Shown one piece after another: positions 26,843 through 56,960 of a stretch of 57,637 nucleotides of DNA. The notes beneath the pieces were generated by a model, which was given only the letters and a program-made list of their open reading frames with translations, had not been told where the DNA came from and did not search any database. The stretch is from Proteromonas lacertae (Eukaryota). The translations under genes were made by a program, and so were the position numbers. Each line of letters starts with the position of its first letter. Positions within the stretch are counted from its first letter, which is position 1. Location of the stretch: positions 62,001 through 119,637 of the forward strand of contig NGBS01000006.1 of assembly GCA_002245135.1 (NCBI GenBank). The letters run 5' to 3'.

Positions 26843-26968
26843 ACCAATTTTATAATGTGGTTGAAATACATTTTTATCAATTTATATTTATTTAACAATT
26901 TTTCCTTACAGTATTAATTGTGTTTTATTCTTTAGTTTTAAATTTTTTAAAATTATATCCGTTTCAAA

Positions 26969-28712
26969 ATGAAGAAAAAAACATTATTTTATATTTCCTA
27001 TTGCCTACTCCTACTTATCATATTTATTGATATGGTAGGCACATCAATGATTGTTCCTATTTTACCTCGATACTCCAAACATTTTGGTTCATCAACATTT
27101 GAACATGGTGTTACGTTTTCATCCTATTCAATAGCTCAATTTCTTAGTTTATCGTTAATGGGTTATTTGAGCGATAAATTTGGAAGAAGACCTCTTCTGT
27201 TAGCTTCTTTATTTGGATCTACATTTGGACCAATATTCCAAGGTTTCTGTTGGAATACTTGGTCATTTATCGCCGGTAGATTCATCACAGGTGCTTTAGG
27301 AGGTAGTTCAACAATTGGATATGCGTATTTATTAATCTCAATTTTATTTTTTATATAGATGGGTAGCTGACTGTATTCCTCCCAAACAAAGACCAAAATA
27401 TCAGACTATAATGAGTGGAATGATATCTCTAGCATGGTGTATTGGTCCAGTATTTGGATCTTTACTAATCGAAGTAAGTTTATCATTTCCACTGTTTATG
27501 GCTGGAGCATTAGGAGGCATTGTATTTATATTAAGTATATTCTTCTTAAAAGAAGGATCAGAATTTGCAGAATTACTAAAAAATGAAGAAATTGAATTAG
27601 AAACACTTTCTCTTAACCAAATTAAAATTCAACAAAATGATAAAAAAAAATTATCCGTTGAATTAGATCCATTAGATCATCCAGTAAGTAGTGAAGATAG
27701 TGAAGAATTTGATGTAAATAAATTGATAGGTAAAACAGCTAGTATTCAATCACCACAATCACCATCATCTACTTCCCAGTTATTACAACAACAACAACAA
27801 CCATTAGATATTAAAACAATGGTAGATTTACCAACACCACCACCACCTGAACCAAACACAGTAATAATTAATGAAGAGGAAGTAAATGAAAGAGAAAGTC
27901 ATATATCAGTGATATCAGCAACAATAGTTGGTGCAACAGCAGTTGCTTATTCAGAAGCAGTAAGAGAAACAACAACAACTAATGATAATATAACAGTAGA
28001 TGAAACTACAAAATCATCAATTGAGAATAATAATAATAATAATAATAATAAGAACTCAAAGTTTTTGGTTGACAATTTCTACACAATATTCATATTATTG
28101 TTAATCATTTGTTTCTTATCAACTTTTCATATTAATTCTTTTGATGTTATATATCCATTAGATGCATCTGACAATTTCAATTTATCATCATTGGAATTAG
28201 GTTTTCTTTATATGGGAGTAGCTGCAATATTTGCATTATTTCAATTATATTTATTTGATAAATCCAGATATTATATGAGTATTATTAGTTTATATTATAT
28301 TTCAATTCCATCAATGAGTATATATTTATTTTTTTTTTCTTTTTTTATTTTTATAGCTATTGCCTGGATTATGTGTGCATTTGCAAAGGTTACTTGGTTG
28401 AGTATAATTGGTACTTTAATTCATGCATTTGGTGGTTCAATCTGCGCTTCTCTTCATACAGTAGTTACTTCATTACTGTGTAGACCAGAATATGGAGGAA
28501 AGTTCTTAGGTTATATGATGTCAGCTGAAGGTTTAGCGAGAATTGCAGCACCCCTTATGCTTCCTAGTATATATGATGTATGGAATCCTTTGGCATATTT
28601 AGTGACGATTGGTGTTGGGGTGATTGAGATGGTTATTATTTTTGTATTTGCATATGTCACTAGAGATGTGAAATTGTTGAGAAGAATTCGAAAGCAAGCA
28701 AAAAAGAATTAA
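26969..28712 (+). CDS. MFS transporter (TetA/DHA1-like), tandem paralogue 1
   Basis: Motif A GYLSDKFGRR, DMVGTSMIVPILP, 6+6 TM layout with long central loop; introns near 27326-27358 and 28318-28356. Confidence 0.88.
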
Positions 28713-28854
28713 ATGATTTATAATGTATGTTATATTTAGCTTATTTTATTTTAATATCTGGTTATTACATTCGTATTATGACTGACATCTATGTTTGTTA
28801 GGCATTTTACCTTACAACACAAAAATTGAACTTGAATCGACAATTTTCATTTTG

Positions 28855-30568
28855 ATGAATTGGAGGTTCATCGCATCTCTAGCAATAGTCTACGCCTCAG
28901 TTTTTATTGACGCGTTTGGTGTATCTATGATTGTACCAATATTACCAACGTTGCAAGAGTATTATCAAATGACAACTATGCAATATTCAATTACTTATGC
29001 TGCATATTGTACTGCTCAATTTTTCAGTATGATTATAATGGGTAAGCTCAGTGACATACTTGGCAGAAGAAAGTTGTTGATTACTTCACTCGTTGGTACC
29101 TCTTTAGGTATATTTCAAATATATAACATAAATACTATTTATAGGTACAATATTGCAAGGCTGTTGTTGGAGTACATGGACATTCGTTGGTGCTCGTTTT
29201 TTCACAGGCTTCATGGGTGGAAGTGCTACAGTAGGATTTGCTTATATATCTGATTGCATCCCACCAGAAAGGCGTCCAAAATATCAATCAGCAATGAGTG
29301 GAATGACTTGTATAGCATATTGCATGGGTCCAGTGTTTGGTACAATGTTAGTAGGCGTATCAGTGAAGTTGCCTTTCTTCTTAGGAGGAGCATTAGCTTC
29401 AATCATCTCTATATTTAGTTTTTGTTATGTTTTAGATGCTAAAGATTTAAAGAAGTTAGAAAAGCAAAATCAACAGGAAATAGAACTACAAACAACAAAC
29501 ACAAAAACTACAACAATTGTAAATAATAATAATAATAATAATCAACGAAATAATAATAATAATAATAGTGATGATGAAGATGATGATAATGATGATGATT
29601 TAGAAAAAATAGAAGATGAAGAAGATGACTTAGAAAAGAAAGGATTAATAACAAGAGTAGAATTACCTGCCAACAACAGAAGCAACAACAATAATAATGA
29701 TTTAACTCCCAGAATGACAGAAGAAGAATTAGATCAAAGAGAAAGTAGATTATCTCAATTAATAACTCAACATTTAGGTAATACATTTGCAGTAATTGAA
29801 TCTCATACAGTTGAAGAAGAAAAAAAGAAAAAAAGAATAAAACATGGAAAGAAAAAAGGATATTCTGTAATAAGTGAAACGGATAATTTATTGGAACTCC
29901 AAGAACAAGAAGCTGCAGTTACTCCAAGAGAAGAGAAGAAAATGAGTAAATTTATAGTTCCGAATTTTTACAAAATATTTATTCCACTTTTCTTTATCTC
30001 TGTATTGAATGGATATCATATTAATTCCTTTGATGTTTTATATCCATTGATATTAAGAGATGTTTATCATGTTAAAACATCTTATACTGGATTCTTATAT
30101 ACTTTATGTGCTGGTATATTTGCAGTAGTTCAAATATATTTATTTGATCATATTAGACATTGTTTTAGTATTATTCAGTTGTATTATATTGGAGTTTCAT
30201 TTATGATATTATCATGGGTACTTCAAGCTTTTACTAATAATGTTTGGGTTACTGTTTTTGCTGGTGCTTGGCATTCTTTTGGTGGTGCACCACCTCAAGC
30301 ACTTCAAACCATCATCACTTCATTGTTATGCAAACCTGAGTTTGGTGGTGTTTATATTGGATATATTATGGCTGCAGATGGTTTGGCTAGGATTATTTGT
30401 CCAATGTCTATACCCACCATTTATGATTTAGGAACATCTGTTCCATTTCATACAACCAATATATTAGGAGCTATTGAGATTATTTTACTTATGTACATGC
30501 ATTATCAGACTAGAAATATTCAAATGTTTAGAAGAGTTAGAAAAGAAAAGACTAATGAAAATGCATAA
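28855..30568 (+). CDS. MFS transporter (TetA/DHA1-like), tandem paralogue 2
   Basis: GKLSDILGRR, AYISDCIPPERRPKY, HINSFDVLYP shared with paralogue 1; one intron near 29108-29144. Confidence 0.88.
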
Positions 30569-32365: not shown

Positions 32366-32463
32366 AACATTTATTGATTGTATTCTATTTAATTCGATAT
32401 TTTGGGTGTTAATTTAGAGTATACCATTAATATTTCTATTTCTTATAACTGCATTTGTTTATC

Positions 32464-35400
32464 TAGGCTTGGATTCTGTTTGCCAGAAACGATCCTTTTT
32501 TCTTTATTCTAGTTTTATACTTATGGAACAACTGTTTTATCAATTAAGATCTATCAGTGACTTAATCAAGTTACAAACCATCGATATGGAGAAAATCAAA
32601 AGTACTTTATTTGTTGTTTAAATCTTCTTCAGTATTATCAAACGAAATAAGAGCAATCGAGAAGAATGAGACTCTGTCTCTATCAAATGCTGAGATTTTA
32701 CATACAATATCAATAGAGCTTTACAATTTAGTTCGAAGTGAAATGCAAAAGTGTAATACACTGAATCGAATGAACTTTCTGATTGAATGTCGAATACTAT
32801 CCTGTGAAATGTTGAATACAAGCACAAAATTCAATTCAATGAAGAGTTTAAGAAATGAAGTGATTAAAGCTTACTGTCGAAGTGGTATATCAATATTGAG
32901 AATAAACAATGTCAATATACGAGGAATATCATGCTATGAGCGAGTATTGGAGATATTAGAAGAAAATGGTGGAATTGAGAGTATAATAACTGAAAAGAAT
33001 GAAGATATGGAAATATGTTTAGAATCAATATATGAGATGTTAGTCAGTTATATCGACTATATATCACGAGAAGAAAAGAATAATAAAGACAAACTGATAA
33101 ACAATATAAAACTGATAAATACAATAATTTCCTATTTAAATGATAATAAGAATGAAGAAATATACAATTTAATGTATTTATTAATATTGTTTATTATATA
33201 TAGATTTGGAATCTTAAAAGAATATCACAAAATGAATCGATATAATGATGTGATAGAAATAGGTGAGATATTTTATTCAATGATAAGTAATAATTGTGAT
33301 GATAATAAGAATATGAAAGTATTATTGCTATTAAGTGATTGTTATATAATGAACAAAGATAAGAAAGCATTAAACTGTTTATATTTGTGTGAATATGAAA
33401 AATATGGAATTGGTATATATTTGATGATAAAATATATATGTTTTACTAAAACTATATCATTTTTATATATTTTTATTTATATTTTCTTTAATTTATATTA
33501 TTTTTACAAAACCGATGAAATAGTGAAATTAATGGAAATGTTATTGAATCATAATAGTAAAGAATATTCATTATGTTTAGATGCTTGTCATATGATATTA
33601 AATAATAATATAATATCTAAAGACAATAATGAATTATATTGGTATAATGAATTAAAAGAACATTTTATTGATCATTGTGTTGATATTAATTTAGAAATAT
33701 TGGAAATACTTTTATCTAAAAATCCAATTCCATTAGATGTAATGGAAATATTGAATGAATTTAAATCAAGTATTTTTATATCTATATATTGTTTATTGAT
33801 TATTATTAAATAGATATTAATTCATTATCAGAATGTCAATTATCTTCAATATATAATCTATTATACAACACTTGTATATTGTATTATGAAAATAAACAAT
33901 ATAATGAATCAATAAATGTATATATATATATAAATAAATATATAAATATATAATAGTGGTGTAATGAGTTATTGCATTTATTGAATAATAATAATAACAG
34001 TTATATTCCCTCCATATTAAGAATGTTATCTGATTGTTACAATGAAACACATAATGTGAATGAAGCCATTAATAAAGCCAAAGAATGTATAAAGATAGAC
34101 AATACAATCAAAGTATAATGATTATTATATAATATAAATAGTCTCATTTCTTATTATATCATATATATATAAACAATAATATTGATAGAATAAATATAAA
34201 TGAAATGAAAGAATGTTTGAACAATTTAATGAATGCAAAAGATTATGATGTAAAATATTTATATTTATGTTGTGAAGAAGCCATTAAAAATAATAATATA
34301 TCAATCTCCATAGAATCCTTAGAAAGACTGTTATATTTACATAATAATATAAAGATTGGTCCAATACTTCGATGTTTAATAGAATTATATAATAATAACC
34401 ATATAAATGATGATAATAAGATATTACAATACTTTTCAAATGGATTAATGAAATTAGATAATATAAAAATAAAGAAAGAAGAAGAAGAAGAATATAATGA
34501 AAAGATAGAGAATGAGATAAAATCAATATTTGGAAATATGGAAGAGATTAATTGGATAGTTGGAATATTATGGAATAAAGGGTTATTATTGAAAGAAAAA
34601 GAGAATTATAAAATGAGTCATAAATACTTGAAATTATGTTATGAATATAGTTGTTATTTACCTCCTTCAAATATACTATTATCCTTAAAGAAATCTTCCT
34701 TATTATTATCCTCAAGCCTATTATTTGAGACAATAAATAAGAACGAAGAAAAGAAAGAAGAAGAAGAAGAAGAATATAAAGAAGTATTAAGAGAAATTGA
34801 AATATGTAAAAGATTATGTTTGAAATTAAAGAAACACTTTGAGAATAATAAAAATGATAATTTGATAGTATTTGGTAGAAAAGAGAATATTTGCACAATA
34901 AATGAGAATATGTTAATATTAAATACAATCGAAATGGAATGTAATTTATATTTACATAATAATGATAATATTGAAGAGTTATTCAATGAATATATTGAAT
35001 CAAGTACAATAATAATAAACCCAGAAATATTAGAATATATCTCTGAAATAGCTAAAAATACCAATTCCAAACCAATAATATATAAAGTATATAAATATAT
35101 ATTATTATACATATTATTATTATTATTATTATTATTATATAGAAATGCTTATCGTTATGTTTACAATATTTATATCAACAGAATCCAATAGATATAAAGT
35201 GTTTAAGTAGAATCTTAAGAAAATTATTATTACAAAGTGAAAACAAAGAAGAATTATACAAATGGCTTGAAGAAATCAATCAAATATGTGAAAATATAAA
35301 AGATGATGATTTTGATAATAGTGATTATGATTTTTATACGAGTATTAGTTGGAACAATGGAATAAAATATTTGAGATTAAAAGAGATAGAAAAGAGTGAG

Positions 35401-36014
35401 AAATTATTGAGTTTATCATTGAAATTCTTAGTAAAATCTAAAGGACTACAAGTATATATTGTAATGTATATATATCGTATAGGCTTACAGTAATGAAATG
35501 AATGAGATCTACAGTAGAGTTCTAAGTGAAAGAGAAGATTGTTGTTTACAACAACTGACTGAGATATGAATGATAATTAAAATCCTTATTATTGATATAT
35601 TGATATAGATATTGTTTTGTTTTTTGTTGTTATTTATTTCCATAAGAGAAAGAAGAGAGATTGTTGTTGATTAAAGAAAGAAGATGGATAAAATATTTCA
35701 GAATATCATATTTCAGTTGCAGATAAGAGTGAAATGTTCATTTTTGAGTTTTAGTTGTTTTTAATGAAATTCTTTCTTTGAATGAAACGACTATAATAAC
35801 GAAAAACTCAGTTTTGTTTTTTAGGATTTTTAGAATGAAATTCTCAATTCTGTGTATGATTTGTATGATATGATGAATAGTCCTTGTGCTGATCTGTAGT
35901 ATTGTTGGTGTTAGTGAAGCAGGCAGACACTTCTTCACGAATGGAAGCATTTCTGAAAGAAAGAATAGTTCAAGAAGATTAAGTGATGTCGAATTAACAA
36001 AAATATCATTTGGA
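32464..36014 (+). repeat. Left arm of a near-identical ~3.55 kb inverted duplication
   Basis: Reverse complement of 45385-48933. Paired ORF coordinates sum to 81397 or 81399, and the translations are identical except for isolated residues. Confidence 0.95.
32523..35569 (+). CDS. TEX11: TPR protein, ZIP4/SPO22/TEX11-like (meiotic crossover factor), copy 1, multi-exon
   Basis: ATG 32523, 31-nt intron 32602-32632; helical repeats; EINWIVGILWNKG and C-terminal SISWNNGIKYLRLKEIEKSEKLLSLSLKF resemble the TEX11/ZIP4 W..AWNxG repeats. Confidence 0.6.
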
Positions 36015-39000
36015 ACTAGTACTGATGGATATTATAATATAAAAGCCAGTTATTTATGTTCTTATGATAATATAGGTATAATCGACAGAACTAACTGTAA
36101 ATTTTGTAAATTTGTATATACATATAAAGGAACATATGATAGAACTAATCAAGAATATAAATTCAGTGATATTGTTCTTGATGAAGAAAAATCGTTATTC
36201 TATTTAGATTCTTCTATCGTAGCTGATTTACCGGAAAAAGAATACAAATACAGTGAACTGAAAACATCTACTGCAGCTGTACAATATGTGGAGAGTAAAA
36301 AATTACCTTTACCAGATTATGTTCATATACCCAGTGGAGAATTGATGTTGGAAGGAGACATTCGTGCACCATATTTTCAGACTTGTATATTATATCTAAA
36401 TTATGAATATAACAATTATAGTGAATAATGAAGATGTGATGTATAGAATAGAAAATAGTCATTACAAAACATATAATGCAAAAATGGATAAAATGTATGG
36501 TTATAGAAAAGATACAAGACAATATTATGAGAGATATGGTTTAGACAATAACATAACAATAATTGAAGTTCATGCAATGAACATGGAAAGAACAATATTA
36601 TATGTTGCAAATAAGAATGAGTATGTCGATATGATTGAGGAATTTAAAATAGTTCAAAATGGTGATGAAGTAGAATCTGAAAGTGGATCACCTTTATATT
36701 GTTATACAGAAGAATGTGATTATGTTAGTTCACTAGTTGATGGTTGGGTTCAGTTCTATATTCGTACAACTTTGTCATTTAAAACAATGCCAAAAGAAGA
36801 TGTAAGAAAAAACATTGATGCAGATATGAAAGCTATAAGAAAAGAGATTAGAAATTATTATAGAAGTAAAATTAGTAATACAAGAGAATTGAATAATTAT
36901 GAAAGAGATTTAGCTGATGATATTGGTTATTATTATGAAGAAAAAGGTGAAAGTAATGATATTTATAACGCATATATAATATATACAAATCAACTTACAA
37001 TATCAACGTATGAAATAGATGGTAGAGATAATGCAAATAATTCAATAAAAGGTATAATAAAAACCAAATATACAATTCCTGATAATAAGATTATAAATCC
37101 TCAGAATGATTATGATTCCACTTCTACTGCTGAATTAGCAGATTATGAGAGTTGTAAAACACCAACTCTTTTATCGTATATATGTATATTATATTAAATT
37201 TTAGTAATGTTGAATCAGTATGTGGAGTAGATGCACAAAGTACTACTAATAGTTATATATATTCACTTCCTATTACTATTCAAATATTGGAAAATAGTAT
37301 GATATTTACTGATGGTAGTAATACAAAAGAAGTAGAATTAAAAGAGAAGAGTATAAATATATGTTTATATAAATAGATGCAGATGATCTTAGAATGATAT
37401 TTGAGAAATTTTCAGTGAATACAATTCCAATACCATCTGAAAAATGTTATAATGGTAATATTATTGATATAAAACATAGTTTGGATATTAATATTACTTC
37501 AATAGATAATGAGTTATACTCATTTGTTAAAGCATTTGAAGATGGAAGTTATGGTTTTGGTATATCAACATCATCTATTTCTAGCAAAGATAAATATTCA
37601 GTATCTGAATCTAGGTATTTTAAATTCGATTATTATTCATTAACTACAGAGGATTTAAGCATTATTAATAAGGGCTATTCATATTTTACTTTCTACCATT
37701 CTCTTGTAGATGGTTTAGTTGATCTAATAGATTGTAAAAGTAATAATGATATTCAAATTCAAAAAGCATTAAATAATTACAATGAAAATGCATATTATAT
37801 TGATAGAATATTTAATAAGCAATTACCAGGAGGAAGTGATAATCCAAATGATGATGATGATAATAATGGTAATGATGATAATAATGATGATAAAACAACC
37901 ACAATAACAACCACAAAATTATTTATTCCTCCTCCAGTGTTACTATCATGTAAATTGAGTGATGAAGGATATATATTGATAATAGAATTTGATAAGAAAT
38001 GTTTAATGAATGGAATAGAAGTAAATAGTATATTTACTTGGAGTGATCCTCCATTTATAACATTTGATTCTTCAACAAGAATTGATATATTATTCTACAA
38101 ATGGATAAATGATGAAACACTATATGCTTATTATAATTCTACAACTGAAAGTATATCAGATTCTCCAAAAATGACACTTACAGAAGGATATATATATTCT
38201 GATTTAGATAGTATTTATTCAGCTAATGGTAGTTTAGCAATTACAACCAGACCTAAAGTTCCTAAAATATTGAATGGTGAATTTATTGATGAAAATATAA
38301 TTGAAATTAATTTTGACATAGAAATCAAAGAAGGAATTAGTATAAGTGGAAGAAAATGTAATGAAATTTTTAGTGATGAAACATTTGGTCCTTCATCAAT
38401 GTGTTATTTATCATCATCGTTGAAAACAATAACAATGAAAATGTCCAATCCAATTACAATATTTCCAAATAATAATTTGACATTAATTCCAAATATACTA
38501 AAAAGCAGTAAAAAGCATATGGAAGGAAGTAAAGGAACTATAAATCTGTCATTATCAGAATCATTTGAAACAGAATTAGAAGCAATAATCTCAATTCCTT
38601 CAATTGTTTCATATTGTTATGATTTTATAATGGATGGAAGTAGAAGTAGAGGTTCAAGTAGACCATTGATCTATCACTGGAGTTCTTCAAATGAAACATT
38701 AAATAATACAATATCCTCTTTAAATGAAGCAATGATAATAATTCCAAAATATTTATTAGAAGGTGGACATTATTATGATGTAAAATTAGAAATCGAAAGT
38801 TCATTTGATCATAGCAATGAATCAAGTAATATAACATTTTTTGTTGATTCAAATTTTGTATTAAATGTGAATATAGAAGGAGATAATAATCATTCAATAT
38901 ATACAAGTCAAAGTGAATATATTCGTGGAAGAGTCTCAGTATATCAATGTAACAAAAGTATTGAAATTCCATCAATTGAATATGATTGGTCATTAAAACA

Positions 39001-42000
39001 TGAGAGTAATAAATCAGAAATTGATATATCAAAATATAAAACCGATGATAAAACCAGATTATATTTTGATTCTCGTTCAATTCCATATGGTGATTATATT
39101 CTTACTTTGAATTCATCAGTTGATGAATTAGAATCCAATTATTCAATAGAACTGAATGTGGAATTACCTTCATTAGAAATTTTAACATCATATCCTGCTT
39201 ATTTAAGTCAAAATCAAAATGAAAGTATATATATTGATTTATCCAATATGAATGATCCAGATAATGTAGATATTGAGTTTACTTATACATGGAATTGTAT
39301 ATTTAATAAGAGTGAAGATGATTATGATGAATTAGTTTCAAATTCAAATCCAAATTCAGAATCAGATTTAGATACTAAAATATTTAAAATACCAAGTAAT
39401 AAATTAAAAATAGGGATTTATGAAATAACAGTTGAAATAAATGGAACAGAAACAGAAAGATCAGTTTCCAAAACATTTATAAGAGATATAAAAGAAATAC
39501 CATTTTCATTATATATTCAAAATCCAAAATCCAATTTAAGTATCTATAATCCTAAAGATATGTTTCAACTAATAAGTATAAGTTCAATCACTGAAAATGA
39601 TAAAATAGAATATAATTGGAGTTATTCAAATGATGAAAATATAAATCCATTTATAGGTAAAAGAGATTATAATAAAGTGAATATAAGATGTGAGAATTTA
39701 AATCCATTAATTACTCATAAAATCAAATTAGAAGTAACATATAAAGGTAATACAGTGGAAAGTTATTATGAATTTAGAATAAATGAAGGTCCATTATTTG
39801 GTTATTTATCTGTTTCAACATTGAACTATCAATTTGGTAATTATATTTCAATAACAACAAGTGGTTGGAAAGGAGAAGAACCATTTAGTTATAGATTTGG
39901 TGTGATAGTAAATAACTCAACTTATTATTTACAAGCAGTATATGGAAGAGGTAACAACTATTATGGAATATTACCATTAGGATCTAATCAATATAATTAT
40001 AGTTTAAATCCAATAGTGTTTATAAAAGATCGATATGGTGTAATATGTAATACAAGTTTTGATAAAGAAGGAAATATAATCGAAATTTATTCTCCACCAA
40101 TGCAATTAGATGATTTATCAAAAATAACTAGCGAATTAAAGAATGTAAGTGATGATTTGAAGAATGAACAATATTTCGATTATATATATTCAATGATAGA
40201 AGGAATTTCATCTCAGATGAAAGAAAGAAATTGTTCAGAAGATATAGGATGTCAAAATGGAGCTGAATGTTTAAATGGTCATTGTCAATGTTTGAATGGA
40301 TTTTATGGTGAATTATGTGAAAATCGAATGCCAATAGATGGTGGATTAAGTGTTAATTATAGTTATGGTGAATGTGATCATAAATGTGGATATGGTTTAA
40401 AACCGAAATGGAAAGAATGTAATAATCCTAAACCTGAATATGGTGGAAAAGAATGTAAAATTGAGATAGAATATGAAATATGTATTGGTGAAGATAAATT
40501 AGAATGTGAAAATGAAAATGGAGGTTGGAGTAAATGGAGTGAATTAAGTGAATGTAATGCTTATTGTGACAATTATAATGGTAAAACAGTATATGGAATT
40601 CAAAGTAGAAATCGAAACTGCTCAGATCCCAAACCATCCGGAAATGGAGCAAATTGTATTGGTGATGAGAATGAAATAATACAATGTTCCAAAGTATGTG
40701 AATCAGTGAATAAACTATGTCCAGGTGAATATATCTCAATGAATGGAACAAAAATTGGTAATGCTTGTAGTAATCATGGAAGTTGTATTATAAGTCGAGA
40801 AGGATGTAAAGAATATGAACCAAATTGTCATAGTAAATGTAAATGTCTTGAAGGTTATGCTGGTGAAAAATGTGAATATAGTAAAAATGAATATGAAATT
40901 CGATTAGATTTAAACAAAGATTTATTAGAAGAGATAGTTGAATCTTCATCTAAAAATGTATTGACAAATGATGCAAGTGAACAACATTCTTCAGCCTTAT
41001 TATCAGTGATAAATCCTCCAACTCAATTATTATCAGAAAATAAATCATTTTCAATGTCAATAATCAAATCTTCAATCAATTCATTAAAAGAGAATTCTTC
41101 ATTTGAAATATCTTATGAATCAATGACAAATTATATAAAAGCGAGTTGTTTATTATTGAATGATGAATGGAAAGATCGAGATGAAAGTAATTCTAGATTG
41201 CTTGAATCATCATCTTCATCTTCATTAATTTCAACAAAGATAGGAGAAGAATTACCTGAATTATTTAAGAATATAAGTAAGATGCATTTGAACCAAGAAA
41301 AATCAATAATTCCATTAGAAGTAATAACTGATGTAGTTAGTTTAAAGTCAATAAAATATGATGGAAGTATCAATTTAAATGATATGGGAGATTCTGTTAA
41401 TTTTCCTAATTCGATATTAAATGTTGATAGTGGAGAAGAAGCAAAAGAAATTTCAATAATTGATTGGTTAGATAATCCAAATAGTGATGATTTTGAATCA
41501 AGTAATAGAAGTGCAGGAGTAATCTCAATCTCAATAATGGGTAAAGAAGAAGAAACAGAAAAGAAATTTAATGATGTGGAAAATGTAATATATTTCATTC
41601 AAAGAATAAATGATGATAGTGATTTAAGACATATTCAATGTAGTTATTATAATAATAATGGTGAACTATCTTCGAAAGGATTAATAGTGATGGGAATAAG
41701 AAATGATGTAAATGGAAGTAAATTTGTGATATGTGGTACAACTCATTTAAGTGATTTTTCAACTCGAAAGAAATCTATATTACCCAAAATGAATTTAGTA
41801 AATCCAATCAGTGATGCGAAATTATTAGGTAATTATAATAAAGATAATATGATAGTTCCAATAATACTAGGAAGTGTAATATTAATCTGTATAATGTGTT
41901 GGCTTCTAACAAAATTCAAAGATTTAAATGAAATAACTAAATTAGAAGAATATAAGAGTGATTATTTTAAACTAACAGGAAGATTAGATGAAGAAGAAAC

Positions 42001-43396
42001 TGAATTTATAAAAAGTGAAAAGAACCACAAATCAATAATGGACAAATATTGGCATGTATTGAAAGATGAGCATAGCTGGTTATCTCCTCAATTAGGTCCA
42101 ACAGAGAATCTAATAGTAGTAAATCGAAATCAAAGAGTGTTATGTTTAACAGCTCAAATATTAACATCAACAGCAGTAAGTGCTTTATTCTTTGGAAATG
42201 ATGCTGAAAATATATCTCAATTAGCAATGACTTCGATAATATCTTCTTTATGTATGTTACCTGCTTCTTTATTAATTCCATATGTATATAAATATGCGAA
42301 TGGTTATATATCTAAGAAAGCATCAAGAAAGACAATTCCAACATGGAAATTGATATATTTGAAGTTGAAAAGATCAATAAAAGAAATGAAGAAAAAGAAA
42401 AATCTACCCAATAATGGTAATGAAAAATATCAATTGATATTGATAGTAGTTTCAATAATATTTGATATAGTGAGTGCTTTGTTCTTCATAATATTTGTAG
42501 CAATATTACCAGCTGGTTATATAACATTAGTTTTATTTTGTATTTATATAATATTTATAATTGAGACAATATCAATAATAATCGTATTAAATGAGAAGAA
42601 GAATAGATTATATATAATAATGATAACAGTGAATATAATATTATTATTATGCTTTTTGATATTATTTATATTGTATATCCTCTATATGAGTGATTCTTCA
42701 GCAGCATATTCGATATGGAAAAGTAGTTATAATGGATCATTAAAAGATTTAAATGAATATATCGAAAATAGTTTAGAATGTTGTGGTTATAATGAAATAG
42801 ATGATTATAATACAACTGATTGTACATCTCCCAAGATAATGGCATTAGGTGAACATACAGGATGTAAATCTTTATTAGTTGATAAATTCAACGAATATGC
42901 AGCACTTTGGTTAATATATTTTATGATAAGTATATCGATGATAGTTATTAAAATATATTTAATATCTAAATTCGTAAAAATAAAACGAAACAAAATCAAT
43001 CCAGATTCATTAACATTTGATAATATAACAACTGCAACTTGTAAGTCTGAGGAAATAATTTCAAGAGATTGTATTGTTGCAACTGAGAAATTAATATGTT
43101 TTTTGAGATATCGAATCTTTAAAGTTCAATACAAAAGAAAAGTTGAATATTTACACTGGAAAAGACAAAGAAGAATAAGAGCTGGATTGATATTATTAGC
43201 TAACTCATTTGTATTTTTATATATTCTAATAATGGTTTATATAAATTTATTATATGGAGTAAAATTTAGTAGTGATCAAGCTACAGAATGGATAATAAGT
43301 TCAACAATCTCAATGATAATCGATGTAATAATTCAAGAACCTTCAATGATACTATTATCAACAGTAGTAACAACTACATTAGGATCAATATTCTAG
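35835..43396 (+). CDS. Polycystin-1-like / adhesion-type receptor: signal peptide, variable N-domain, REJ, EGF, 2x TSP1, EGF, GPS, multi-TM region with nested tetraspanin-like module
   Basis: Splicing the 27-nt intron 35854-35880 gives signal peptide MKFSILFLVLICSIVGVSEA. REJ motifs MDGSRS..LIYHW and DPD..FTYTWNC; TSP1 GGWSKWSELSEC..RNRNCSDPKP; GPS CGTTHLSDF; PKD-like EHSWLS, RNQRVLCL and LYGVKF..EW. Confidence 0.85.
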
Positions 43397-43589
43397 ATTA
43401 CATATAATGATTAAAATTTTTATTTTTATTTTTATATTTGTTGTTGATATTTCGTTATTAATTTATTTTATTACATCTATTTTTATTATCAGTAAAAATA
43501 TTTGGTTATGAAATATCATTTACATGGTTATTCTTTTGTCTTCCCATTCCATTAGCTATAATTTTGTTATTTGATTTCTATCAAAAGTA

Positions 43590-45564
43590 TTAATTGATAG
43601 TTGATAATCTATATATCATTAAATTGTTTTCTATTAACGTTTCTATAAATGTATGATAATTTATTAATAACGAATATTCAACAACAAATATAAAGTTATT
43701 AACTAGTTTACCTTCTGCAATTGCTTTATTGTCATTTTTAAGCTCTTCTGTTGTTGCAAATACATAAACAGCATCTCCTACAGCCTTATATTGTTTTACT
43801 TCAGATATTGTTTCATACTCAACTAATGATATCTCTGAATTGGAATAAACATATATCATTCCACCACCAAATATCAATTTACTAGATACATAACTTCTAT
43901 CTCTTATTATGGTTATATTAGTTTCTTCCACTCCATCTCCAGAAAAACTAAAATCATAATTCAAACATTTGTCAGAAGGGATTGGAATTGTATTGAAGGT
44001 AGATTTTTCAATTATCATTCTTAGATCATTTATATCTATTAAAATAAACATAAATTTATACTCTTCTCTTTTAATTCTACTTCTTTTGAATAATCTGAAA
44101 TAGTAATTCTTAAACTCTTTTCCAATACTTCAATCCTGGTTGGAATACTATCCAACATTCTATTTATCTGCTGTACTGCATTTGATCCACATTTTAATTC
44201 AACATCTCTATTTATAAATATAATATTCAAATATACGATAAAAGTGTTGGTGTTTTACAATTCTCATAGTAATTAAATTCAATAGTTGAAGAAGGTTCAT
44301 AATCATTCTGAGGATTTATAATCTTATTCTCTGGTATTGTATATTTACATTTTAATAAATATTTTTCACTTCTACTCATAGAATTATATGTTAAAATTGA
44401 TAATATATTTGAATCTAATATGTAACTATGAAAATAATCACTATCATCGCCATCTTCATAATAATATCCAACATCATTAGTTAAATCTCTTTCATAATTA
44501 TTCAATTCTCTTGTATTACTAATTTTACTTCTATAATAATTTCTAATCTCTTTTCTAATAGCTTTCATATCTGAATCAATGTTTTTTCTTACATCTTCTT
44601 TTGCCATAGGTCTAAATGATCCTAATATGCTTGTATAGAAATCAGCCCAACCTTCTTCTTCATTATACATACCAACATAGTCACATTCTTCAGTATAACA
44701 ATATATTACACTACCTCTTGTATCTTTTATTTCATCACCATTTTGAATTTTTTCTATGACAGAGATACCATCGATGAATATATTTTCATCAGCTATATAA
44801 GTGATCGCTCTAAAATAATCCATTGCATTTACAACTATTACAGTAATATTATTATATATCCCTAATCCATCGAAATATTTCATAGATTCTTTACTATAAC
44901 CATACATTTTATCCATTTTTGCATTATATGTTTTGTAATGACTGTTTTCTATTCTATACATCACATCTTCATTGCTTACTATAATTATATATATATATAT
45001 ATATATACGACTGTAAGAGTCTCTATATTTATTATCACTATCATCAAAAAAATATGACATATATGAATCTATTTCAACTTTTGTTATATATGGTGATTTT
45101 TTACTCTCCACATATTGTACAGCTTCTGCACATCCTTTCAATTCACTGTATTTGTATTCTTTCTCTGGTAAATCGCAGTAGATAGATCCATCTAAATAGA
45201 ATATAGATTTTTCTTCATCTACAACATAATCACTAAAACTGTAGGTTTTAGTTGTTTTATCATATGTTCCTTTATATGTATATACAAATTTACAGAATTT
45301 ACAGTTATCTCTATCAATAATGGCCAAATTTTCATAAGAACATAAATAACCAACTTTTGCATTATTTCCAAACATAGATATAGCTCCAAACGATATTTTT
45401 GTTAATTCGACATCACTTAATCTTCTTGAAATATTCTTTCTTTCAGAAATGCTTCCATTCGTGAAGAAGTGTCTGCCTGCTTCACTAACACCAACAATAC
45501 TACAGATCAGCACAAGGACTATTCATCATATCATACAAATCATACACAGAATTGAGAATTTCAT
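43590..45564 (-). CDS. Truncated, probably secreted paralogue of the receptor N-terminal domain (no REJ/GPS/TM body)
   Basis: Same first exon and signal peptide, same intron positions and patchy identity to 35835-37450; stops at 43590 with no membrane anchor. Confidence 0.75.
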
Positions 45565-48500
45565 TCTAAAAATCCTAAAAAACAAAACTGAGTTTTTCGT
45601 TATTATAGTCGTTTCATTCAAAGAAAGAATTTCATTAAAAACAACTAAAACTCAAAAATGAACATTTCACTCTTATCTGCAACTGAAATATGATATTCTG
45701 AAATATTTTATCCATCTTCTTTCTTTAATCAACAACAATCTCTCTTCTTTCTCTTATGGAAATAAATAACAACAAAAAACAAAACAATATCTATATCAAT
45801 ATATCAATAATAAGGATTTTAATTATCATTCATATCTCAGTCAGTTGTTGTAAACAACAATCTTCTCTTTCACTTAGAACTCTACTGTAGATCTCATTCA
45901 TTTCATTACTGTAAGCCTATACGATATATATACATTACAATATATACTTGTAGTCCTTTAGATTTTACTAAGAATTTCAATGATAAACTCAATAATTTCT
46001 CACTCTTTTCTATCTCTTTTAATCTCAAATATTTTATTCCATTGTTCCAACTAATACTCGTATAAAAATCATAATCACTATTATCAAAATCATCATCTTT
46101 TATATTTTCACATATTTGATTGATTTCTTCAAGCCATTTGTATAATTCTTCTTTGTTTTCACTTTGTAATAATAATTTTCTTAAGATTCTACTTAAACAC
46201 TTTATATCTATTGGATTCTGTTGATATAAATATTGTAAACATAACGATAAGCATTTCTATATAATAATAATAATAATAATAATAATATGTATAATAATAT
46301 ATATTTATATACTTTATATATTATTGGTTTGGAATTGGTATTTTTAGCTATTTCAGAGATATATTCTAATATTTCTGGGTTTATTATTATTGTACTTGAT
46401 TCAATATATTCATTGAATAACTCTTCAATATTATCATTATTATGTAAATATAAATTACATTCCATTTCGATTGTATTTAATATTAACATATTCTCATTTA
46501 TTGTGCAAATATTCTCTTTTCTACCAAATACTATCAAATTATCATTTTTATTATTCTCAAAGTGTTTCTTTAATTTCAAACATAATCTTTTACATATTTC
46601 AATTTCTCTTAATACTTCTTTATATTCTTCTTCTTCTTCTTCTTTCTTTTCTTCGTTCTTATTTATTGTCTCAAATAATAGGCTTGAGGATAATAATAAG
46701 GAAGATTTCTTTAAGGATAATAGTATATTTGAAGGAGGTAAATAACAACTATATTCATAACATAATTTCAAGTATTTATGACTCATTTTATAATTCTCTT
46801 TTTCTTTCAATAATAACCCTTTATTCCATAATATTCCAACTATCCAATTAATCTCTTCCATATTTCCAAATATTGATTTTATCTCATTCTCTATTTTTTC
46901 ATTATATTCTTCTTCTTCTTCTTTCTTTATTTTTATATTATCTAATTTCATTAATCCATTTGAAAAGTATTGTAATATCTTATTATCATCATTTATATGG
47001 TTATTATTATATAATTCTATTAAACATCGAAGTATTGGACCAATCTTTATATTATTATGTAAATATAACAGTCTTTCTAAGGATTCTATGGAGATTGATA
47101 TATTATTATTTTTAATGGCTTCTTCACAACATAAATATAAATATTTTACATCATAATCTTTTGCATTCATTAAATTGTTCAAACATTCTTTCATTTCATT
47201 TATATTTATTCTATCAATATTATTGTTTATATATATATGATATAATAAGAAATGAGACTATTTATATTATATAATAATCATTATACTTTGATTGTATTGT
47301 CTATCTTTATACATTCTTTGGCTTTATTAATGGCTTCATTCACATTATGTGTTTCATTGTAACAATCAGATAACATTCTTAATATGGAGGGAATATAACT
47401 GTTATTATTATTATTCAATAAATGCAATAACTCATTACACCACTATTATATATTTATATATTTATTTATATATATATACATTTATTGATTCATTATATTG
47501 TTTATTTTCATAATACAATATACAAGTGTTGTATAATAGATTATATATTGAAGATAATTGACATTCTGATAATGAATTAATATCTATTTAATAATAATCA
47601 ATAAACAATATATAGATATAAAAATACTTGATTTAAATTCATTCAATATTTCCATTACATCTAATGGAATTGGATTTTTAGATAAAAGTATTTCCAATAT
47701 TTCTAAATTAATATCAACACAATGATCAATAAAATGTTCTTTTAATTCATTATACCAATATAATTCATTATTGTCTTTAGATATTATATTATTATTTAAT
47801 ATCATATGACAAGCATCTAAACATAATGAATATTCTTTACTATTATGATTCAATAACATTTCCATTAATTTCACTATTTCATCGGTTTTGTAAAAATAAT
47901 ATAAATTAAAGAAAATATAAATAAAAATATATAAAAATGATATAGTTTTAGTAAAACATATATATTTTATCATCAAATATATACCAATTCCATATTTTTC
48001 ATATTCACACAAATATAAACAGTTTAATGCTTTCTTATCTTTGTTCATTATATAACAATCACTTAATAGCAATAATACTTTCATATTCTTATTATCATCA
48101 CAATTATTACTTATCATTGAATAAAATATCTCACCTATTTCTATCACATCATTATATAGATTCATTTTGTGATATTCTTTTAAGATTCCAAATCTATATA
48201 TAATAAACAATATTAATAAATACATTAAATTGTATATTTCTTCATTCTTATTATCATTTAAATAGGAAATTATTGTATTTATCAGTTTTATATTGTTTAT
48301 CAGTTTGTCTTTATTATTCTTTTCTTCTCGTGATATATAGTCGATATAACTGACTAACATCTCATATATTGATTCTAAACATATTTCCATATCTTCATTC
48401 TTTTCAGTTATTATACTCTCAATTCCACCATTTTCTTCTAATATCTCCAATACTCGCTCATAGCATGATATTCCTCGTATATTGACATTGTTTATTCTCA

Positions 48501-48933
48501 ATATTGATATACCACTTCGACAGTAAGCTTTAATCACTTCATTTCTTAAACTCTTCATTGAATTGAATTTTGTGCTTGTATTCAACATTTCACAGGATAG
48601 TATTCGACATTCAATCAGAAAGTTCATTCGATTCAGTGTATTACACTTTTGCATTTCACTTCGAACTAAATTGTAAAGCTCTATTGATATTGTATGTAAA
48701 ATCTCAGCATTTGATAGAGACAGAGTCTCATTCTTCTCGATTGCTCTTATTTCGTTTGATAATACTGAAGAAGATTTAAACAACAAATAAAGTACTTTTG
48801 ATTTTCTCCATATCGATGGTTTGTAACTTGATTAAGTCACTGATAGATCTTAATTGATAAAACAGTTGTTCCATAAGTATAAAACTAGAATAAAGAAAAA
48901 AGGATCGTTTCTGGCAAACAGAATCCAAGCCTA
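45385..48933 (-). repeat. Right arm of the inverted duplication
   Basis: Reverse complement of 32464-36014. Confidence 0.95.
45830..48874 (-). CDS. TEX11: ZIP4/SPO22/TEX11-like TPR protein, copy 2
   Basis: Mirror of 32523-35569; one visible amino-acid change (KMNRYN to KMNLYN). Confidence 0.6.
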
Positions 48934-49008
48934 AATACCTTAAAAACGTGAATATATTCATCATCAATACATAACATAATAATATATATTAAGGGCTACA
49001 GACCCAAA

Positions 49009-49055
49009 ATGGCTTGACGCTAGACCACGAGGCTTGACGCTGGACCCGAGGCTAA
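49009..49055 (+). repeat. Subterminal GC-rich tandem repeat GGCTTGACGCTRGACC(A)CGA, ~2.3 copies
   Basis: ggcttgacgctagaccacga ggcttgacgctggacccga ggcta. Confidence 0.85.
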
Positions 49056-49144
49056 AATTCGTATATTCGTTTCATTTTTCTTATTTTTCATTTTATTCAA
49101 TAACCGTTCATTTGTACAACGGTTTTAACGGTCGTTATGAATCC

Positions 49145-49176
49145 GTTACATGTCAGTTACATAACTGACGTGTAAC
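49145..49176. repeat. Inverted repeat/hairpin, 15-bp arms with 1 mismatch
   Basis: GTTACATGTCAGTTA-CA-TAACTGACGTGTAAC. Confidence 0.85.
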
Positions 49177-49272
49177 TGACGGTGTAACTGCCGTCCGTTG
49201 TAAACATTTGTTCAATTATGTTATAGAGACTGATATAAACCTTAGGAAGGCCATATACACCACCTAAGACTC

Positions 49273-49304
49273 GTTTTCACTTTCCCTTGTTTTCACTTTC
49301 CCTT
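49273..49304 (+). repeat. 16-nt direct repeat x2 (GTTTTCACTTTCCCTT)
   Basis: Directly visible. Confidence 0.9.
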
Positions 49305-49339
49305 TTCTTTTACTCATTTAGTTTTTGAAATGCGGATTT

Positions 49340-49458
49340 CATAATCGATTTTCCTTTCCCTTTCTTTTTTTCACTTATTTACCTAGAGAAAAGTGATCGA
49401 CTTCACTTTCCCTAAGTAAGGAAGTGAAAAAAAGAAAGGGTAAGAAGAATCGGTTATG
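49340..49458. repeat. ~120-nt imperfect palindrome with a perfect 19-bp stem
   Basis: 49358-49376 CCCTTTCTTTTTTTCACTT pairs with 49422-49440; outer CATAATCGATT/AATCGGTTATG; imperfect inner stem. Confidence 0.9.
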
Positions 49459-49579
49459 GATTTTTTATGTTATTTTAAATAAACCCTTAAAAACACACAG
49501 TCTTCTTTTTATTTTAATTAATCTCTGTATTAGTATTTAAAATATATAATTATTTAATCATAATTAGATAAATTCATAT

Positions 49580-49992
49580 TTACTTACTTCTTTTTTTGAT
49601 ATCTGCATCCATTTTCACTCTAGCTGCTAAAGCATCACATAATAAAGATAGTAATCCATTAACTGCGTAATCTAATTTGTTATCAATAAATAATTGATTA
49701 TTCTCAATTAATTCTTTCTTAAATCTATTACCATCTTTTCTAATATTATCTAAATATGTGATAATTTCCAATCTTTTTTTCGTTGCATACTGATTACTAT
49801 AATAATGCTTAACTTTGTCTAGTATAGCTTTTAACTTTGCTAGATTAGCTATACTCTCTTCTAAATAATATAAGAAATGAATTTCTGTATATCCATTTAA
49901 TGCTAATTCTCTAATGCTATTAAAAACTTTGATCCAAAATGGTATTTCTTCTTGAACCATTGTTATATCTCTCTGATAAACAAAATGACGCA
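49580..49992 (-). CDS. Hypothetical helical protein of the Polinton-like element
   Basis: Clean ORF of ~137 aa from the ATG at 49992, divergent from PolB; no family recognised. Confidence 0.6.
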
Positions 49993-50045
49993 TATTAATA
50001 TAGTAAATAATCAAAAAAACAATAAATTAAAAGTAAAGTTAATTA

Positions 50046-50107
50046 TTTCTTTGATAATCAAAGAAAAAATTTTAACTATATTATTACAACTCCTTGATTA
50101 TCAAGGA
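50046..50107. promoter_or_regulatory. Two related palindromes (core CTT(T)GAT-W-ATC(A)AAG) in a divergent promoter
   Basis: TTTCTTTGAT-A-ATCAAAGAAA (50046-50066) and TCCTTGAT-T-ATCAAGGA (50091-50107). The regulatory role is inferred. Confidence 0.55.
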
Positions 50108-50189
50108 ATTTCAATTAGCAAATCATATTAATACATTTGGAGTTATTTTATTGGGTATATTTATATCTTTCTCGTTTTTATAGGTTCTA

Positions 50190-53100
50190 ATGTATCCCAG
50201 CTATCCTCCTTGGTTTAATCCGTGGTATTACCAGTCTCCAAGTACTTCTATGCCTATTCAAGGCAATAGTCAAGCAAATCAGATTCCAATGTTGCCACAA
50301 AGTTATTTTAATCCCTGGATGAACCCTTATTTTACTCCAGCTATCCCACCACCACCACCATCCTATTACTATCCTCCACCATATTATGTAGGATCATTAA
50401 ATCAACATCCACAACAACCTCAGCAGCAGCAGCAACAACAACAACAACAATCAAACACTACTAGAAGTACTAATGGAACTAGTTTCATAACACCAAGAAG
50501 AAGAACAACATCTTCAATTGTAATTGATCAACCACCTCCTCCACCTCCAAAAATACAGCGATTAGCAGAAATCCCAGATGATTTATTGCCAGATACACCT
50601 CCTCCTGAAGATCCACCAACACTTTCACCAATTAATGATGGACCAATTCCTGAAATACATCCTCAATCAACTACAGATGTTGAAAGAAGAAGGCAGCTAC
50701 AGGAAGAAATGATTGCTCTGGATGTTGTTGATAATCATCCAGAGCAGTTGAAAACAATGTCACATCCTGAAAGAGTAAGTTTGTTACAACTTGTAGAGAG
50801 AAGCAGTAGAGACTACGAACGTACCTACGAGAAGATTATAAATGAAGAAGATGGAAAGAAACCTGAGGATTTGTTTACCCAAATCTGCAATGCATCAAGT
50901 GATTTTATGGTTACCATACGTAACTACATAAATGAGAAGAAATTTTCTTATATAAAAGTGTATTTCAGATTCAGAGTAGGTTATATAGGATCCGATGAAC
51001 CAGCCAATGCACAAGTAAGTTGTTACAAAACATTCGAAACAGCGCCAGAAATTATAACTTCTCAAGAGTTAGGTACAATTGGTTCAAAGTTAAACAATGC
51101 CATGATTCGAGATTTAGGTTCAATTTTCAACACTGAAAGATCTGAACTAAAGTTCAGATATATTAAGAAGGTAGAGATGATACTGATGAAAAGTTCAATG
51201 GCTGCTGGATCCTCTACAGAAGATGACAACATAAAGTTACCAGCAAGTCTCAACAATAGAAAGTGCGTTATTAATTTAGTAAGATATAGTGAAGAATGTA
51301 AGAATATGTGCTTTTTATTTAGTGTGGCAGCTGGTTTACACTATATAGAGTTCAAAGACCACCGTAACAGAGCAATGAAATATAAACAGTATGTAGACTT
51401 AATGGATGTAAGTAGTTTAAGGTTTCCAGTAGATGCAATTAATGATAGTGACAGAATTGATGAGTTTGAACAGCTGAATCATATTACTATCAATATATTT
51501 ACAATAGACCAGAATGAACCAATACCTTTATACGTTACCAACATAGATAAAAGAAAACACTGGCCTCATGTGAACCTATTGATATATAAAGATCATTATA
51601 TGGTAATAACAAAGTTAGAAGCCTTCCTATCACCTTCTGGTAAAAGGTGTCATAATTATTATACCAGATGCCAGTATTGTTTCTGTACTTTATCAACAGC
51701 TGATATGATAATTCAACATCAGAAAGAGAACTGTCAATTACAAAAAGGAATCATTCGTCAATTTCCACCTCCAGATACCTTCATCAAGTTTCATAATTTC
51801 AAATACCAACAAATGATTCCTGTAGTATTATACTGGGATACAGAAGTTATACAAGTACCAATAGATCCTTCTGAAGTAATACCTGGAGCCAAAGGAGCGT
51901 TTAAAAAACATATTCTCAGCAGTTGGTGCATTCACTTAAGTTCCAGGTACCCTGAAATCATCAGCGAAGAAACATTCTTCGGAAAACTGGAATTGCAGCA
52001 AGATCCACAAGATTTGGAGATGCAACTAGTAAAGAAGTTTGTTGAGATTCAAGATTATGTATTGAAGAAGTATGAAGATTATAAAAGTGGTGAATTGAAA
52101 CCATTAGATGAAAGCACTTATATTCCAGCTCATAAAAATATCGATAAATGTATGTGGTGCAATACACCCTTCAATGAAAACGACAGAAATAGAAGGCGAA
52201 CAAGACACCATGACCATTTTACTGGTAAGTATATTGCAACCTTATGTTCAAACTGTAATTGGCATTGTAGTTTACAACATATGCCTATACCATGTTTGGC
52301 ACACAACAGTAAAAACTATGACAATAACTTTATAATACGCGGATTATCAAAGTTGGATAAAGAAATGGAAGCAAAATGGTACAATGATAATAATATTCCT
52401 ATTCCAAATGATGATGATGATGATGATGAAGATAATGAAATTATACAATTACCAATACCTGAACCTGAACCTGAACCAATTGCTGATAGATTAGCTGAAT
52501 ACAATAGAGGTATTGAAGAAGAAAAGAAACAAGAACAAGAAGCAAAAACAGTTGATAATGATGAAGAAGATGCAGAAACAGAAGAAGATACTGATTCTGA
52601 TTTGCCATTACCAGAAATACCACCAAATGCAATTGAAATAGTTGATGAGAATGATCCAGCAAATGAAGAAGCATTTAATGAGTTGTATTACATGTTACAT
52701 AGTAGAGATCATTACATATCACCAAGAACAGCAGAAGATATTGGATTAGAAGAAGAGATGGGAAATATTATTGTTTCACAACCTAATTCAACAACAACTG
52801 AACAACAACAACAACAACAACCAACACCAAGAAAGAAGAAATATCATTCAAAACTATCTGTATTGTTAAAAACTGATAATAAGTTTTTACTTATCAAGTT
52901 CATGAAGTTACACTTTATAGATAGTTGTCAATTTATGCCAGCATCATTAGATTCATTAGTAAAGTCATTGAAAGTCGAAGCTGATGCACATGCTAATCAT
53001 AAAGTACTCTTTAAACCAGTTTATCAATATGTAACACAAACAAAAGAGATAAATGATTGTTTAAAAGAGAGAAACTGGACAGTGGATGATTTTATAGCTA

Positions 53101-55077: not shown

Positions 55078-55113
<36 letters not shown>

Positions 55114-56936: not shown

Positions 56937-56960
56937 GAATTCTTAAAAAATGTAACGAAA

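Follow-up and report, generated by a model that had tools for sequence, protein, structure and literature searches.

Results

Two convergent genes at the inner ends of an inverted repeat

We analyzed a stretch of 57,637 nucleotides (nt) from Proteromonas lacertae (assembly GCA_002245135.1, contig NGBS01000006.1, positions 62,001 to 119,637 of the forward strand), referred to as the window in the following, with respect to two convergent genes which carry different versions, V1 and V2, of one tip domain. An earlier note on this DNA had proposed a candidate inversion or conversion cassette for diversifying a surface receptor. The window contains eukaryotic-type genes with standard stop codons. 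Introns were inferred as GT-AG introns from the reading frame and measure 26-56 nt across the three modelled genes. The features needed for the argument are listed here in positions of the window (UTR, untranslated region).

35835-43396, plus strand: gene 1, 2480 amino acids; exons 35835-35853, 35881-36384, 36422-37175, 37205-37350 and 37377-43396
43590-45564, minus strand: gene 2, 620 amino acids; exons 45564-45546, 45518-45009, 44978-44237, 44207-44062 and 44035-43590
32460-36018, plus strand: left arm of the inverted repeat, 3,559 nt, with a ZIP4-like gene, the intergenic/promoter region and the first ~51 codons of gene 1
45381-48937, minus strand: right arm of the inverted repeat; outer edge ~55 nt from a Polinton-like element
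32523-35569, plus strand: ZIP4/SPO22-like gene, left copy, 938 amino acids, 6 inferred introns; start codon 63 nt into the arm
45830-48874, minus strand: ZIP4/SPO22-like gene, right copy, intact, with the single amino acid change R229L
43431-43480, plus strand: 3' UTR element of gene 1, 50 nt, 35 nt past the stop of gene 1
43645-43694, minus strand: inverted relic of this element in the last 35 codons of gene 2; 29 of the first 32 nt match

A single BLAST alignment (32460-37448 versus 48937-43964) unveils an inverted duplication of ~5 kb, whose outer 3,559 nt, the arms, are 99.8% identical and differ by six substitutions and one TA indel. Three of the six substitutions fall in the final 51 nt before the identity stops at codon 51-52 of the receptor genes. 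The edges of the arms are sharp, and past the outer edge no diverged remnant was found. The near-identical promoter, signal peptide and first ~50 codons that the earlier note had described for the convergent pair were confirmed (178 of the 180 nt from the start codon, 35835-36014 versus 45385-45564) and turned out to be the inner end of this larger 3.56-kb repeat.

The ZIP4-like gene is complete in both arms, each ATG being located 63 nt inside the outer end of its arm. Its largest exon shows an Atlas feature similarity of 0.91-0.93 to SPO22/ZIP4 clusters at a low recognition of 1427, and all ten of the ten best family-assigned matches share the SPO22/ZIP4 family or its clan; a Pfam scan of the single exons gave no match to SPO22. 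Judged by these similarities the arm gene is ZIP4/SPO22-like and likely a meiosis gene. Since the left arm is preceded by a UBC13-like gene and the right arm abuts the Polinton-like element, the right side of the duplication is suggested to be the derived copy.

Gene 1, the anchored receptor

Gene 1 encodes a signal peptide, the tip V1 (amino acids 1 to ~625), a D/N/T linker and, from amino acid ~661, a REJ-like body, which continues with EGF/TSP1 modules, a GPS-like motif and eight hydrophobic segments (19-residue window). Its four introns (26-37 nt) match those of gene 2 in position, and each spliced frame contains one stop. The previous claim that only one copy is joined to a REJ-GPS-membrane body holds for the layout, with 2480 amino acids encoded by gene 1 and the stop of gene 2 at 43590, but has to be qualified for the domain names: neither REJ nor GPS gave a direct Pfam match in the gene 1 protein, and both assignments draw on the homologues P0008 and P0009 and on the motif. 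Over 1859 columns the body shares 36% identity with P0008, and the part of P0008 aligned to it matches REJ (E 5e-20). The GPS-like sequence CGTTHLSDF is found at amino acid 1927, with the first membrane segment at 1967, and this region aligns to the Pfam GPS domain of the Aphanomyces protein P0009 (pairwise E 5e-5), the sole named homologue of the receptor. Gene 1 also gave TSP1 matches and contains EGF-like modules. Animal polycystin-1 carries a PLAT domain and a PKD channel domain; neither was listed by Pfam for gene 1 at E up to 1, although divergence may hide them.

In the Logan protein P0008 the body (amino acids 739-2520), 36% identical to that of gene 1, stands under an unrelated tip of ~740 residues (amino acids 1-738). 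Because the same body is thereby joined to an unrelated tip, the tip appears to be an exchangeable module in evolution. Six variants of P0008 differ at 25 of 738 tip, 30 of 1262 ectodomain and 4 of 520 membrane positions. Within the membrane part of gene 1 a weak tetraspanin match (E 5e-6, below the cut-off) was observed at 42437-42961, amino acids 1689-1863 of the open reading frame 37373-43396. This region contains a CCG motif which is kept in P0008, and possibly represents a tetraspanin-like module that became part of a polycystin-1-like protein. Furthermore, V1 lacks two cysteines (C121 and C136 of V2; 36222-36300 versus 45177-45096) that V2 and most exon-2 homologues keep, so that at this place the anchored copy and not the truncated copy carries the derived state.

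Gene 2 and the relic at its 3' end

Gene 2 consists of the tip V2 only. Its upstream DNA, start and signal peptide match those of gene 1, the four introns are the same, and the frame is open up to the stop at 43590 and is kept through all indels relative to gene 1. After the signal peptide no hydrophobic segment passes as a membrane anchor (19-residue window), for which reason the product is predicted to be a secreted tip. The ratio of nonsynonymous to synonymous divergence (dN/dS) between the two genes is 0.18-0.6, depending on the method; as dS itself varies threefold by method, positive selection is not claimed.

The match between the 3' UTR element of gene 1 and the relic in gene 2 scores 58 and is the best non-self match in the window (next 44), and none of 2000 shuffles reached this value (maximum 44). 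The similarity of gene 2 to V1 fades just upstream of the relic, which likely marks the deletion joint and a 164-nt spacer. Since gene 2 ends in a relic of the 3' UTR, it likely began as a duplicate of the whole receptor gene and has since lost its body.

A stop of gene 2 made by polyadenylation at a TGTTGTT motif was also considered; it was left open and not adopted. TGTTGTT follows only some of the stops in the window, and only 6 copies of TGTTTGTT were counted in 49 kb of the window; in human Blastocystis subtypes TGTTTGTT is reported about once per 3 kb (PMC5608401).

Islands and shared tracts

Past the arms, the two tips share a series of exact tracts, of which two near-identical islands stand out.

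36427-36506, plus strand: island 1; partner 44894-44973, minus strand; 79 of 80 nt identical; 1 silent difference in 23 codons
36791-36912, plus strand: island 2; partner 44482-44603, minus strand; 120 of 122 nt identical; 1 silent difference in 38 codons
36049-37431, plus strand: region holding the 18 exactly shared tracts (14-75 nt), each of which starts in the same codon phase in gene 1 and gene 2
36105-36141 (37 nt), 37324-37358 (35 nt), 37084-37115 (32 nt) and 36275-36303 (29 nt), plus strand: longest exactly shared tracts outside the islands

The island identities reported before were reproduced base for base. Each gene was said to carry a divergent version of one domain of ~500 amino acids; indeed, homology between V1 and V2 is clear to amino acid ~500 (265 of 443 aligned codons identical between amino acids 52 and 500) and weak to ~575. 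The tips share ~60% of their amino acids overall, with 96% identity in the islands and 49% outside. The final exact tracts (35 and 14 nt) are situated near amino acids 470-490, and nothing in common was found beyond the tip.

The comparison of silent divergence inside and outside the islands, as proposed in the earlier note, revealed 2 differences in 61 codons of the islands versus 46 in 196 elsewhere (permutation p 0.013 for the longest run with one difference), so that normal silent divergence is not what the islands exhibit. Over the whole tip, 12 of 143 codons in long runs of identical amino acids differ silently versus 36 of 114 in short runs (amino-acid-stratified p 0.00015). This deficit remains with both islands removed (p 0.008) and is significant in codons with three or more synonyms. 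A tandem pair of MFS paralogues, used as control, showed no silent drop in long runs (6/14 versus 79/179; small n). The G+C content at third codon positions (GC3) amounts to 12-16% and is equal inside and outside the islands.

At the protein level, sites varying among three outside homologues were considered, where V1 equals V2 at 37 of 39 sites in the islands and at 48 of 121 elsewhere (p 2e-10, with islands that were picked after the fact). A clustering test without preselected islands gave an identical V1/V2 run of 21 in exon 3 (p 0.0006); the runs of 17 control pairs ranged from 3 to 9, one of them with a run p of 0.04.

From these comparisons of sequence, the islands are conserved motifs of the family, yet more alike than purifying selection explains. 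As the silent deficit, the identity at sites free to vary and the clustering exceed what selection alone would leave, gene conversion between the tips has likely occurred, in many short tracts. The divergence of ~0.2% in the arms and 1.2-1.6% in the islands, and near saturation elsewhere, points to different ages of these events.

Geometry of exchange

The earlier note had further argued that a crossover in an island would yield a chimeric tip in frame. The geometry permits this, all 18 exact tracts being in phase: an island crossover should give the body V2 sequence upstream of the break, in frame, as a rare event. Since the arms exceed the islands 30-45-fold in length, most crossovers would land in them and leave the protein unchanged. 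In that case the 9.4-kb interior would flip, only changing which gene is located 3.4 kb from the Polinton-like element. Because no homology exists behind the tip, the tip cannot be exchanged whole.

Shufflons operate with a dedicated site-specific recombinase and short conserved sites at the ends of the cassettes, and cassette conversion as in VSG, vlsE and pilE draws on many donors, which are silent, promoterless or partial. No site-specific recombinase was detected in the 29 chosen open reading frames or exons scanned with Pfam (the window contains 47 open reading frames of at least 100 amino acids), except for a weak rve match (E 0.11) in the Polinton-like element. Inspection by eye of the ends of eight tracts gave no common recombination-site motif; the tracts are coding motifs of 14-75 nt. 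The suggested search for further cassettes yielded the two tip copies and no third in the window, leaving gene 2 as the single donor there. Gene 2 comes with a separate copy of the promoter region and therefore counts as a second gene rather than a silent cassette. Consequently, of the proposed conversion or shufflon-like variation the past exchange between tips is likely, given the excess identity of the islands, while a shufflon-like or cassette switch is unsupported.

Relatives and fold of the tip

A HMMER search over 1.84 billion representatives gave nine tip homologues, all of them Logan proteins (three for exon 3 and six for exon 2). Two sister pairs are found among them, P0152/P0154 (61% identity, support 95/93) and P0153/P0156 (63%, support 98/100). 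P0152/P0154 exhibits a clustered identical run (p 0.0014) in the middle of exon 2, at a place which differs from islands 1 and 2. If the members of the sister pairs share genomes, paired tips under concerted evolution would recur, with tracts that are not fixed sites. As a separate observation by eye, three polymorphic sites of P0152/P0154 show the residue of the partner (N/K, Q/E and V/I), a weak hint of exchange. No block swaps were seen among the within-cluster variants (7 of P0001 and 6, 3, 12 and 2 of others; 97-99% identical), although 90% clusters would hide large swaps.

P0001 shows a mosaic signal, being V2-like before amino acid ~70 of exon 3 and V1-like after it (MaxChi p 0.008-0.017). 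A past V1/V2 crossover was considered on this basis and rejected: eight of the nine homologues are without such a signal, which also fails correction. Metagenome scans with the tip and with the body found no relative.

The tip gave no Pfam match at the cut-off, no match to a solved structure and no usable Atlas match. A first structure prediction reached a predicted local distance difference test score (pLDDT) of 35 and a second one of 55.5, with a confident beta-rich region at residues ~40-130. Foldseek returned nothing at E 0.001 with the tip model, and the best hits of a wide fold search (Z up to 5.8) were small beta-barrels. With weak matches to such a common arrangement, neither a fold nor a function is claimed for the tip.

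Neighbouring features

The right arm is followed by a mobile element, which runs off the end of the window.

48990-57637: Polinton/Maverick-like element, running off the window
50184-55145: family B polymerase with an endonuclease VII-like insert, 1653 amino acids (E 3e-17 and 0.007)
55205-56496: weak rve integrase in two open reading frames (E 0.11)

Short repeats occur near the left end of the element, among them a 52-nt inverted repeat (49340-49458; 85% complementary, 15-nt loop) and, near to it, 17-nt direct repeats (49271-49413). A scan of viral contigs with the polymerase found no relative. The G+C content (GC) of the window is 31% in the element and 26% outside.

The MFS transporter paralogues that served as control lie in tandem at 26951-30568 and are old, with silent sites near saturation. 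A large EGF/teneurin-EGF repeat gene in two open reading frames (12640-16637) is likely another surface protein. The best matches of a CHD helicase of the window are oomycetes (~50% identity), with one fish within the top five; Blastocystis was absent from the matches listed. No tRNA genes were found in the window. The low GC and the short introns fit reports on tortoise-clade Blastocystis, for which 21-23% GC and canonical stops are described (PMC10690189, PMC12129017). Taken together, these features suggest a divergent stramenopile resembling Blastocystis.

Discussion

Proposed history of the locus

We consider it moderately probable that the locus is an inverted duplication of a ZIP4-receptor unit, whose second copy is predicted to encode a secreted tip and whose halves are kept alike by occasional, unprogrammed gene conversion. 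The unit would have been duplicated tail to tail around the 164-nt spacer, whereupon the right receptor copy would have lost ~5.75 kb, fusing its tip to the former 3' UTR. The tips would then have diverged to ~60% amino acid identity with both frames remaining open, while homologous repair between the nearby inverted copies may have transferred short tracts wherever conserved motifs permit pairing. More recently, one or more long tracts may have been copied across the ZIP4 arm, with a sharp end near codon 51. The presumed outcome is an exposed domain that is reshuffled slowly over evolutionary time, with no switch.

Alternative explanations

Several results weigh against repeated exchange between the tips. 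The silent sum-of-squares test alone is borderline (p 0.054-0.063), the silent run without mismatch is not significant (p 0.14-0.16), and neither is the drop in two-fold degenerate codons (4/88 versus 7/58, p 0.11). Island 1 alone is weak, with 1 silent difference observed and 4.3 expected. In the sum-of-squares clustering test, 3 of the 17 control pairs fall below p 0.05, one of them at 0.001. Among the relatives, V1 and V2 are nearest neighbours without starred tree support, and the clustering in P0153/P0156 is not significant (p 0.16). Within the family, conservation is moreover highest in the islands (51-69% identity in other pairs versus 33-47% outside), as would be expected if purifying selection acted alone and the arm had been copied once in recent time, by a template switch from the 5' end of gene 2 with ZIP4 as a passenger. 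The partly borderline silent tests, the conservation of the island motifs across all outside homologues, the low GC3 of 12-16%, which reduces silent differences, and the sharp arm edges with no diverged remnant past the outer one are consistent with this account. We nevertheless regard it as unlikely: selection does not explain the agreement of V1 and V2 at 37 of 39 island positions where other homologues can vary freely, the silent deficit survives both amino-acid stratification and removal of the islands, and GC3 is the same inside and outside of them. A one-off origin of the arm fits repeated conversion too, and only the denial of tip conversion is contradicted. An assembly artefact, with arm identity caused by repeat collapse or polishing or with two haplotypes joined in inverted orientation, would agree with an arm that ends at a mobile element and a window that ends within it. 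It is very doubtful, however, since six sites and one indel separate the arms, which therefore are not one consensus placed twice, and since a divergence of 40% between the interior copies is not what a fold-back chimera would show. In addition, the right flank differs from the UBC13-like gene on the left, and a single read is longer than either island, both of which lie in unique sequence.

Two further explanations assume a switch. A mechanism in which the islands invert or convert frequently or in a programmed manner, serving antigenic variation within a cell population as the earlier note had it, appears quite improbable, even though the inverted geometry, the in-phase tracts reaching amino acid ~490, the likely past exchange and the pairing of one anchored with one unanchored copy suit it. 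The P0001 mosaic (MaxChi p 0.008-0.017) likewise points this way, but was seen in one of nine outside homologues and is lost after correction. Blastocystis is reported to be without end-joining genes (PMC5608401), which would favour homologous repair if the organism belongs to that group. Against such a switch stand the missing recombinase in the 29 scanned reading frames, the missing common end motif, a single donor in the window which possesses its own promoter and signal peptide, the absence of homology behind the tip, and the lack of block swaps in 6, 12, 3 and 2 cluster variants and 7 P0001 variants (where 90% clusters hide large ones). Frequent exchange should also have wiped out the 40% divergence. 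Alternatively, crossover in the arms might change which gene lies beside the Polinton-like element, whose silencing would shut down either the anchored receptor or the secreted tip, with the receptor being involved in mate recognition. The anatomy is like that of Ogataea, with an identical kilobase inverted repeat, an alternative gene at each copy and a candidate silencer outside one of them (PMC5720833); a likely meiosis gene lies within the arm, and in another stramenopile a gene encoding a REJ-GPS protein is regarded as a candidate for gamete recognition (PMC4700764). By analogy, arm recombination could place the anchored receptor or the secreted tip beside a silenced Polinton and thus create two interconvertible cell types in a stramenopile for which sex has not been observed, with rarer island crossovers providing new tip specificities, a scenario to which we attach very little weight. 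The flip/flop switch as such is equally hard to credit: a mobile element would make an unstable silencer, the assignment of the arm gene to ZIP4 is weak (recognition of 1427 and no match in Pfam), the 5' coding ends differ within the outside pairs, and a yeast repeat of such anatomy with sporulation genes, the FF region, is stable in the laboratory (PMC9731477).

Comparison with known systems

Occasional conversion in an inverted duplication has its closest likeness in two reported systems. The FF region of Saccharomyces carries sporulation genes in an inverted repeat of 4 kb, whose copies are homogenised within each strain; the region has inverted repeatedly in evolution and remained unchanged over ~53,800 mitoses and 950 meioses (PMC9731477). 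Both loci consist of a near-identical, gene-bearing kilobase inverted repeat (here 3,559 nt, with an intact ZIP4-like gene per arm) around an invertible interior; in FF the repeat genes belong to the sexual cycle, as they likely do here, and in some FF strains mobile elements are located at the repeat edge. Unlike FF, the repeat in the window runs into diverged paralogues of a surface protein, of which one is anchored and the other truncated, and exchange can thereby alter a protein. The interior measures 9.4 kb here and is known from one orientation, and no centromere is known here. In Plasmodium, the neighbouring surface-antigen paralogues DBLMSP1 and DBLMSP2 undergo non-allelic conversion on population time scales, none of which was seen in culture or crosses; RH2a/RH2b are named in the same paper (PMC10919680). 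As in DBLMSP1/2, two nearby surface paralogues share patches of one domain, whereas the domain is unrelated, the pair described here is inverted and convergent with one copy lacking the membrane body, and the comparison here covers a single sequence.

In Ogataea and Komagataella, mating-type switching is induced, acts on non-homologous MAT regulators and uses a centromere as silencer (PMC5720833). The likeness is one of layout only, an identical kilobase inverted repeat with an alternative gene next to each copy; the genes here are paralogous receptor genes, and the Polinton-like element ~55 nt past the right arm is a candidate silencer only. With shufflons, VSG, vlsE and pilE the locus shares a constant body, an alternative variable end nearby and a geometry that allows in-frame exchange, and differs from them in that neither a recombinase nor short specific sites were found, the single donor carries a promoter of its own, and homology is lacking on the far side of the variable region.

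In Ectocarpus, the REJ-GPS protein Esi0130_0068 is regarded as a candidate for gamete recognition (PMC4700764). Gene 1 resembles this protein, the Aphanomyces protein P0009 and polycystin-1-type REJ-GPS receptors in general in its signal peptide, REJ-like ectodomain, GPS-like motif and membrane segments, and departs from them in a tip of no known family, an EGF/TSP1 insert and a weak tetraspanin-like module. Blastocystis possesses 9 of 11 meiosis-specific genes and is without end-joining components; in the text passage on meiosis genes ZIP4 is not named, though supplement S6 Data may differ (PMC5608401). Our search of the open-access literature found no report on Blastocystis ZIP4 in meiosis, no description of inverted-paralogue conversion in protist parasites, and none of antigenic variation, conversion or REJ in Blastocystis. 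REJ and polycystin are absent from the main text of PMC12129017, whose supplements may list such genes.

Significance

On the most probable reading, the locus is a clear example of how concerted evolution remodels the exposed tip of a protist receptor not described before. It combines two known patterns, the homogenised gene-bearing inverted repeat and conversion between surface paralogues, with hints of recurrence in relatives. Furthermore, it places a likely ZIP4 gene beside a REJ-GPS receptor in a lineage in which sex is inferred from gene lists only. If a flip of the interior affected expression, or if chimeras arose within a clone, the locus would constitute a switch of surface or mating properties at the DNA level, of a kind for which we found no report for this group in the open-access literature.

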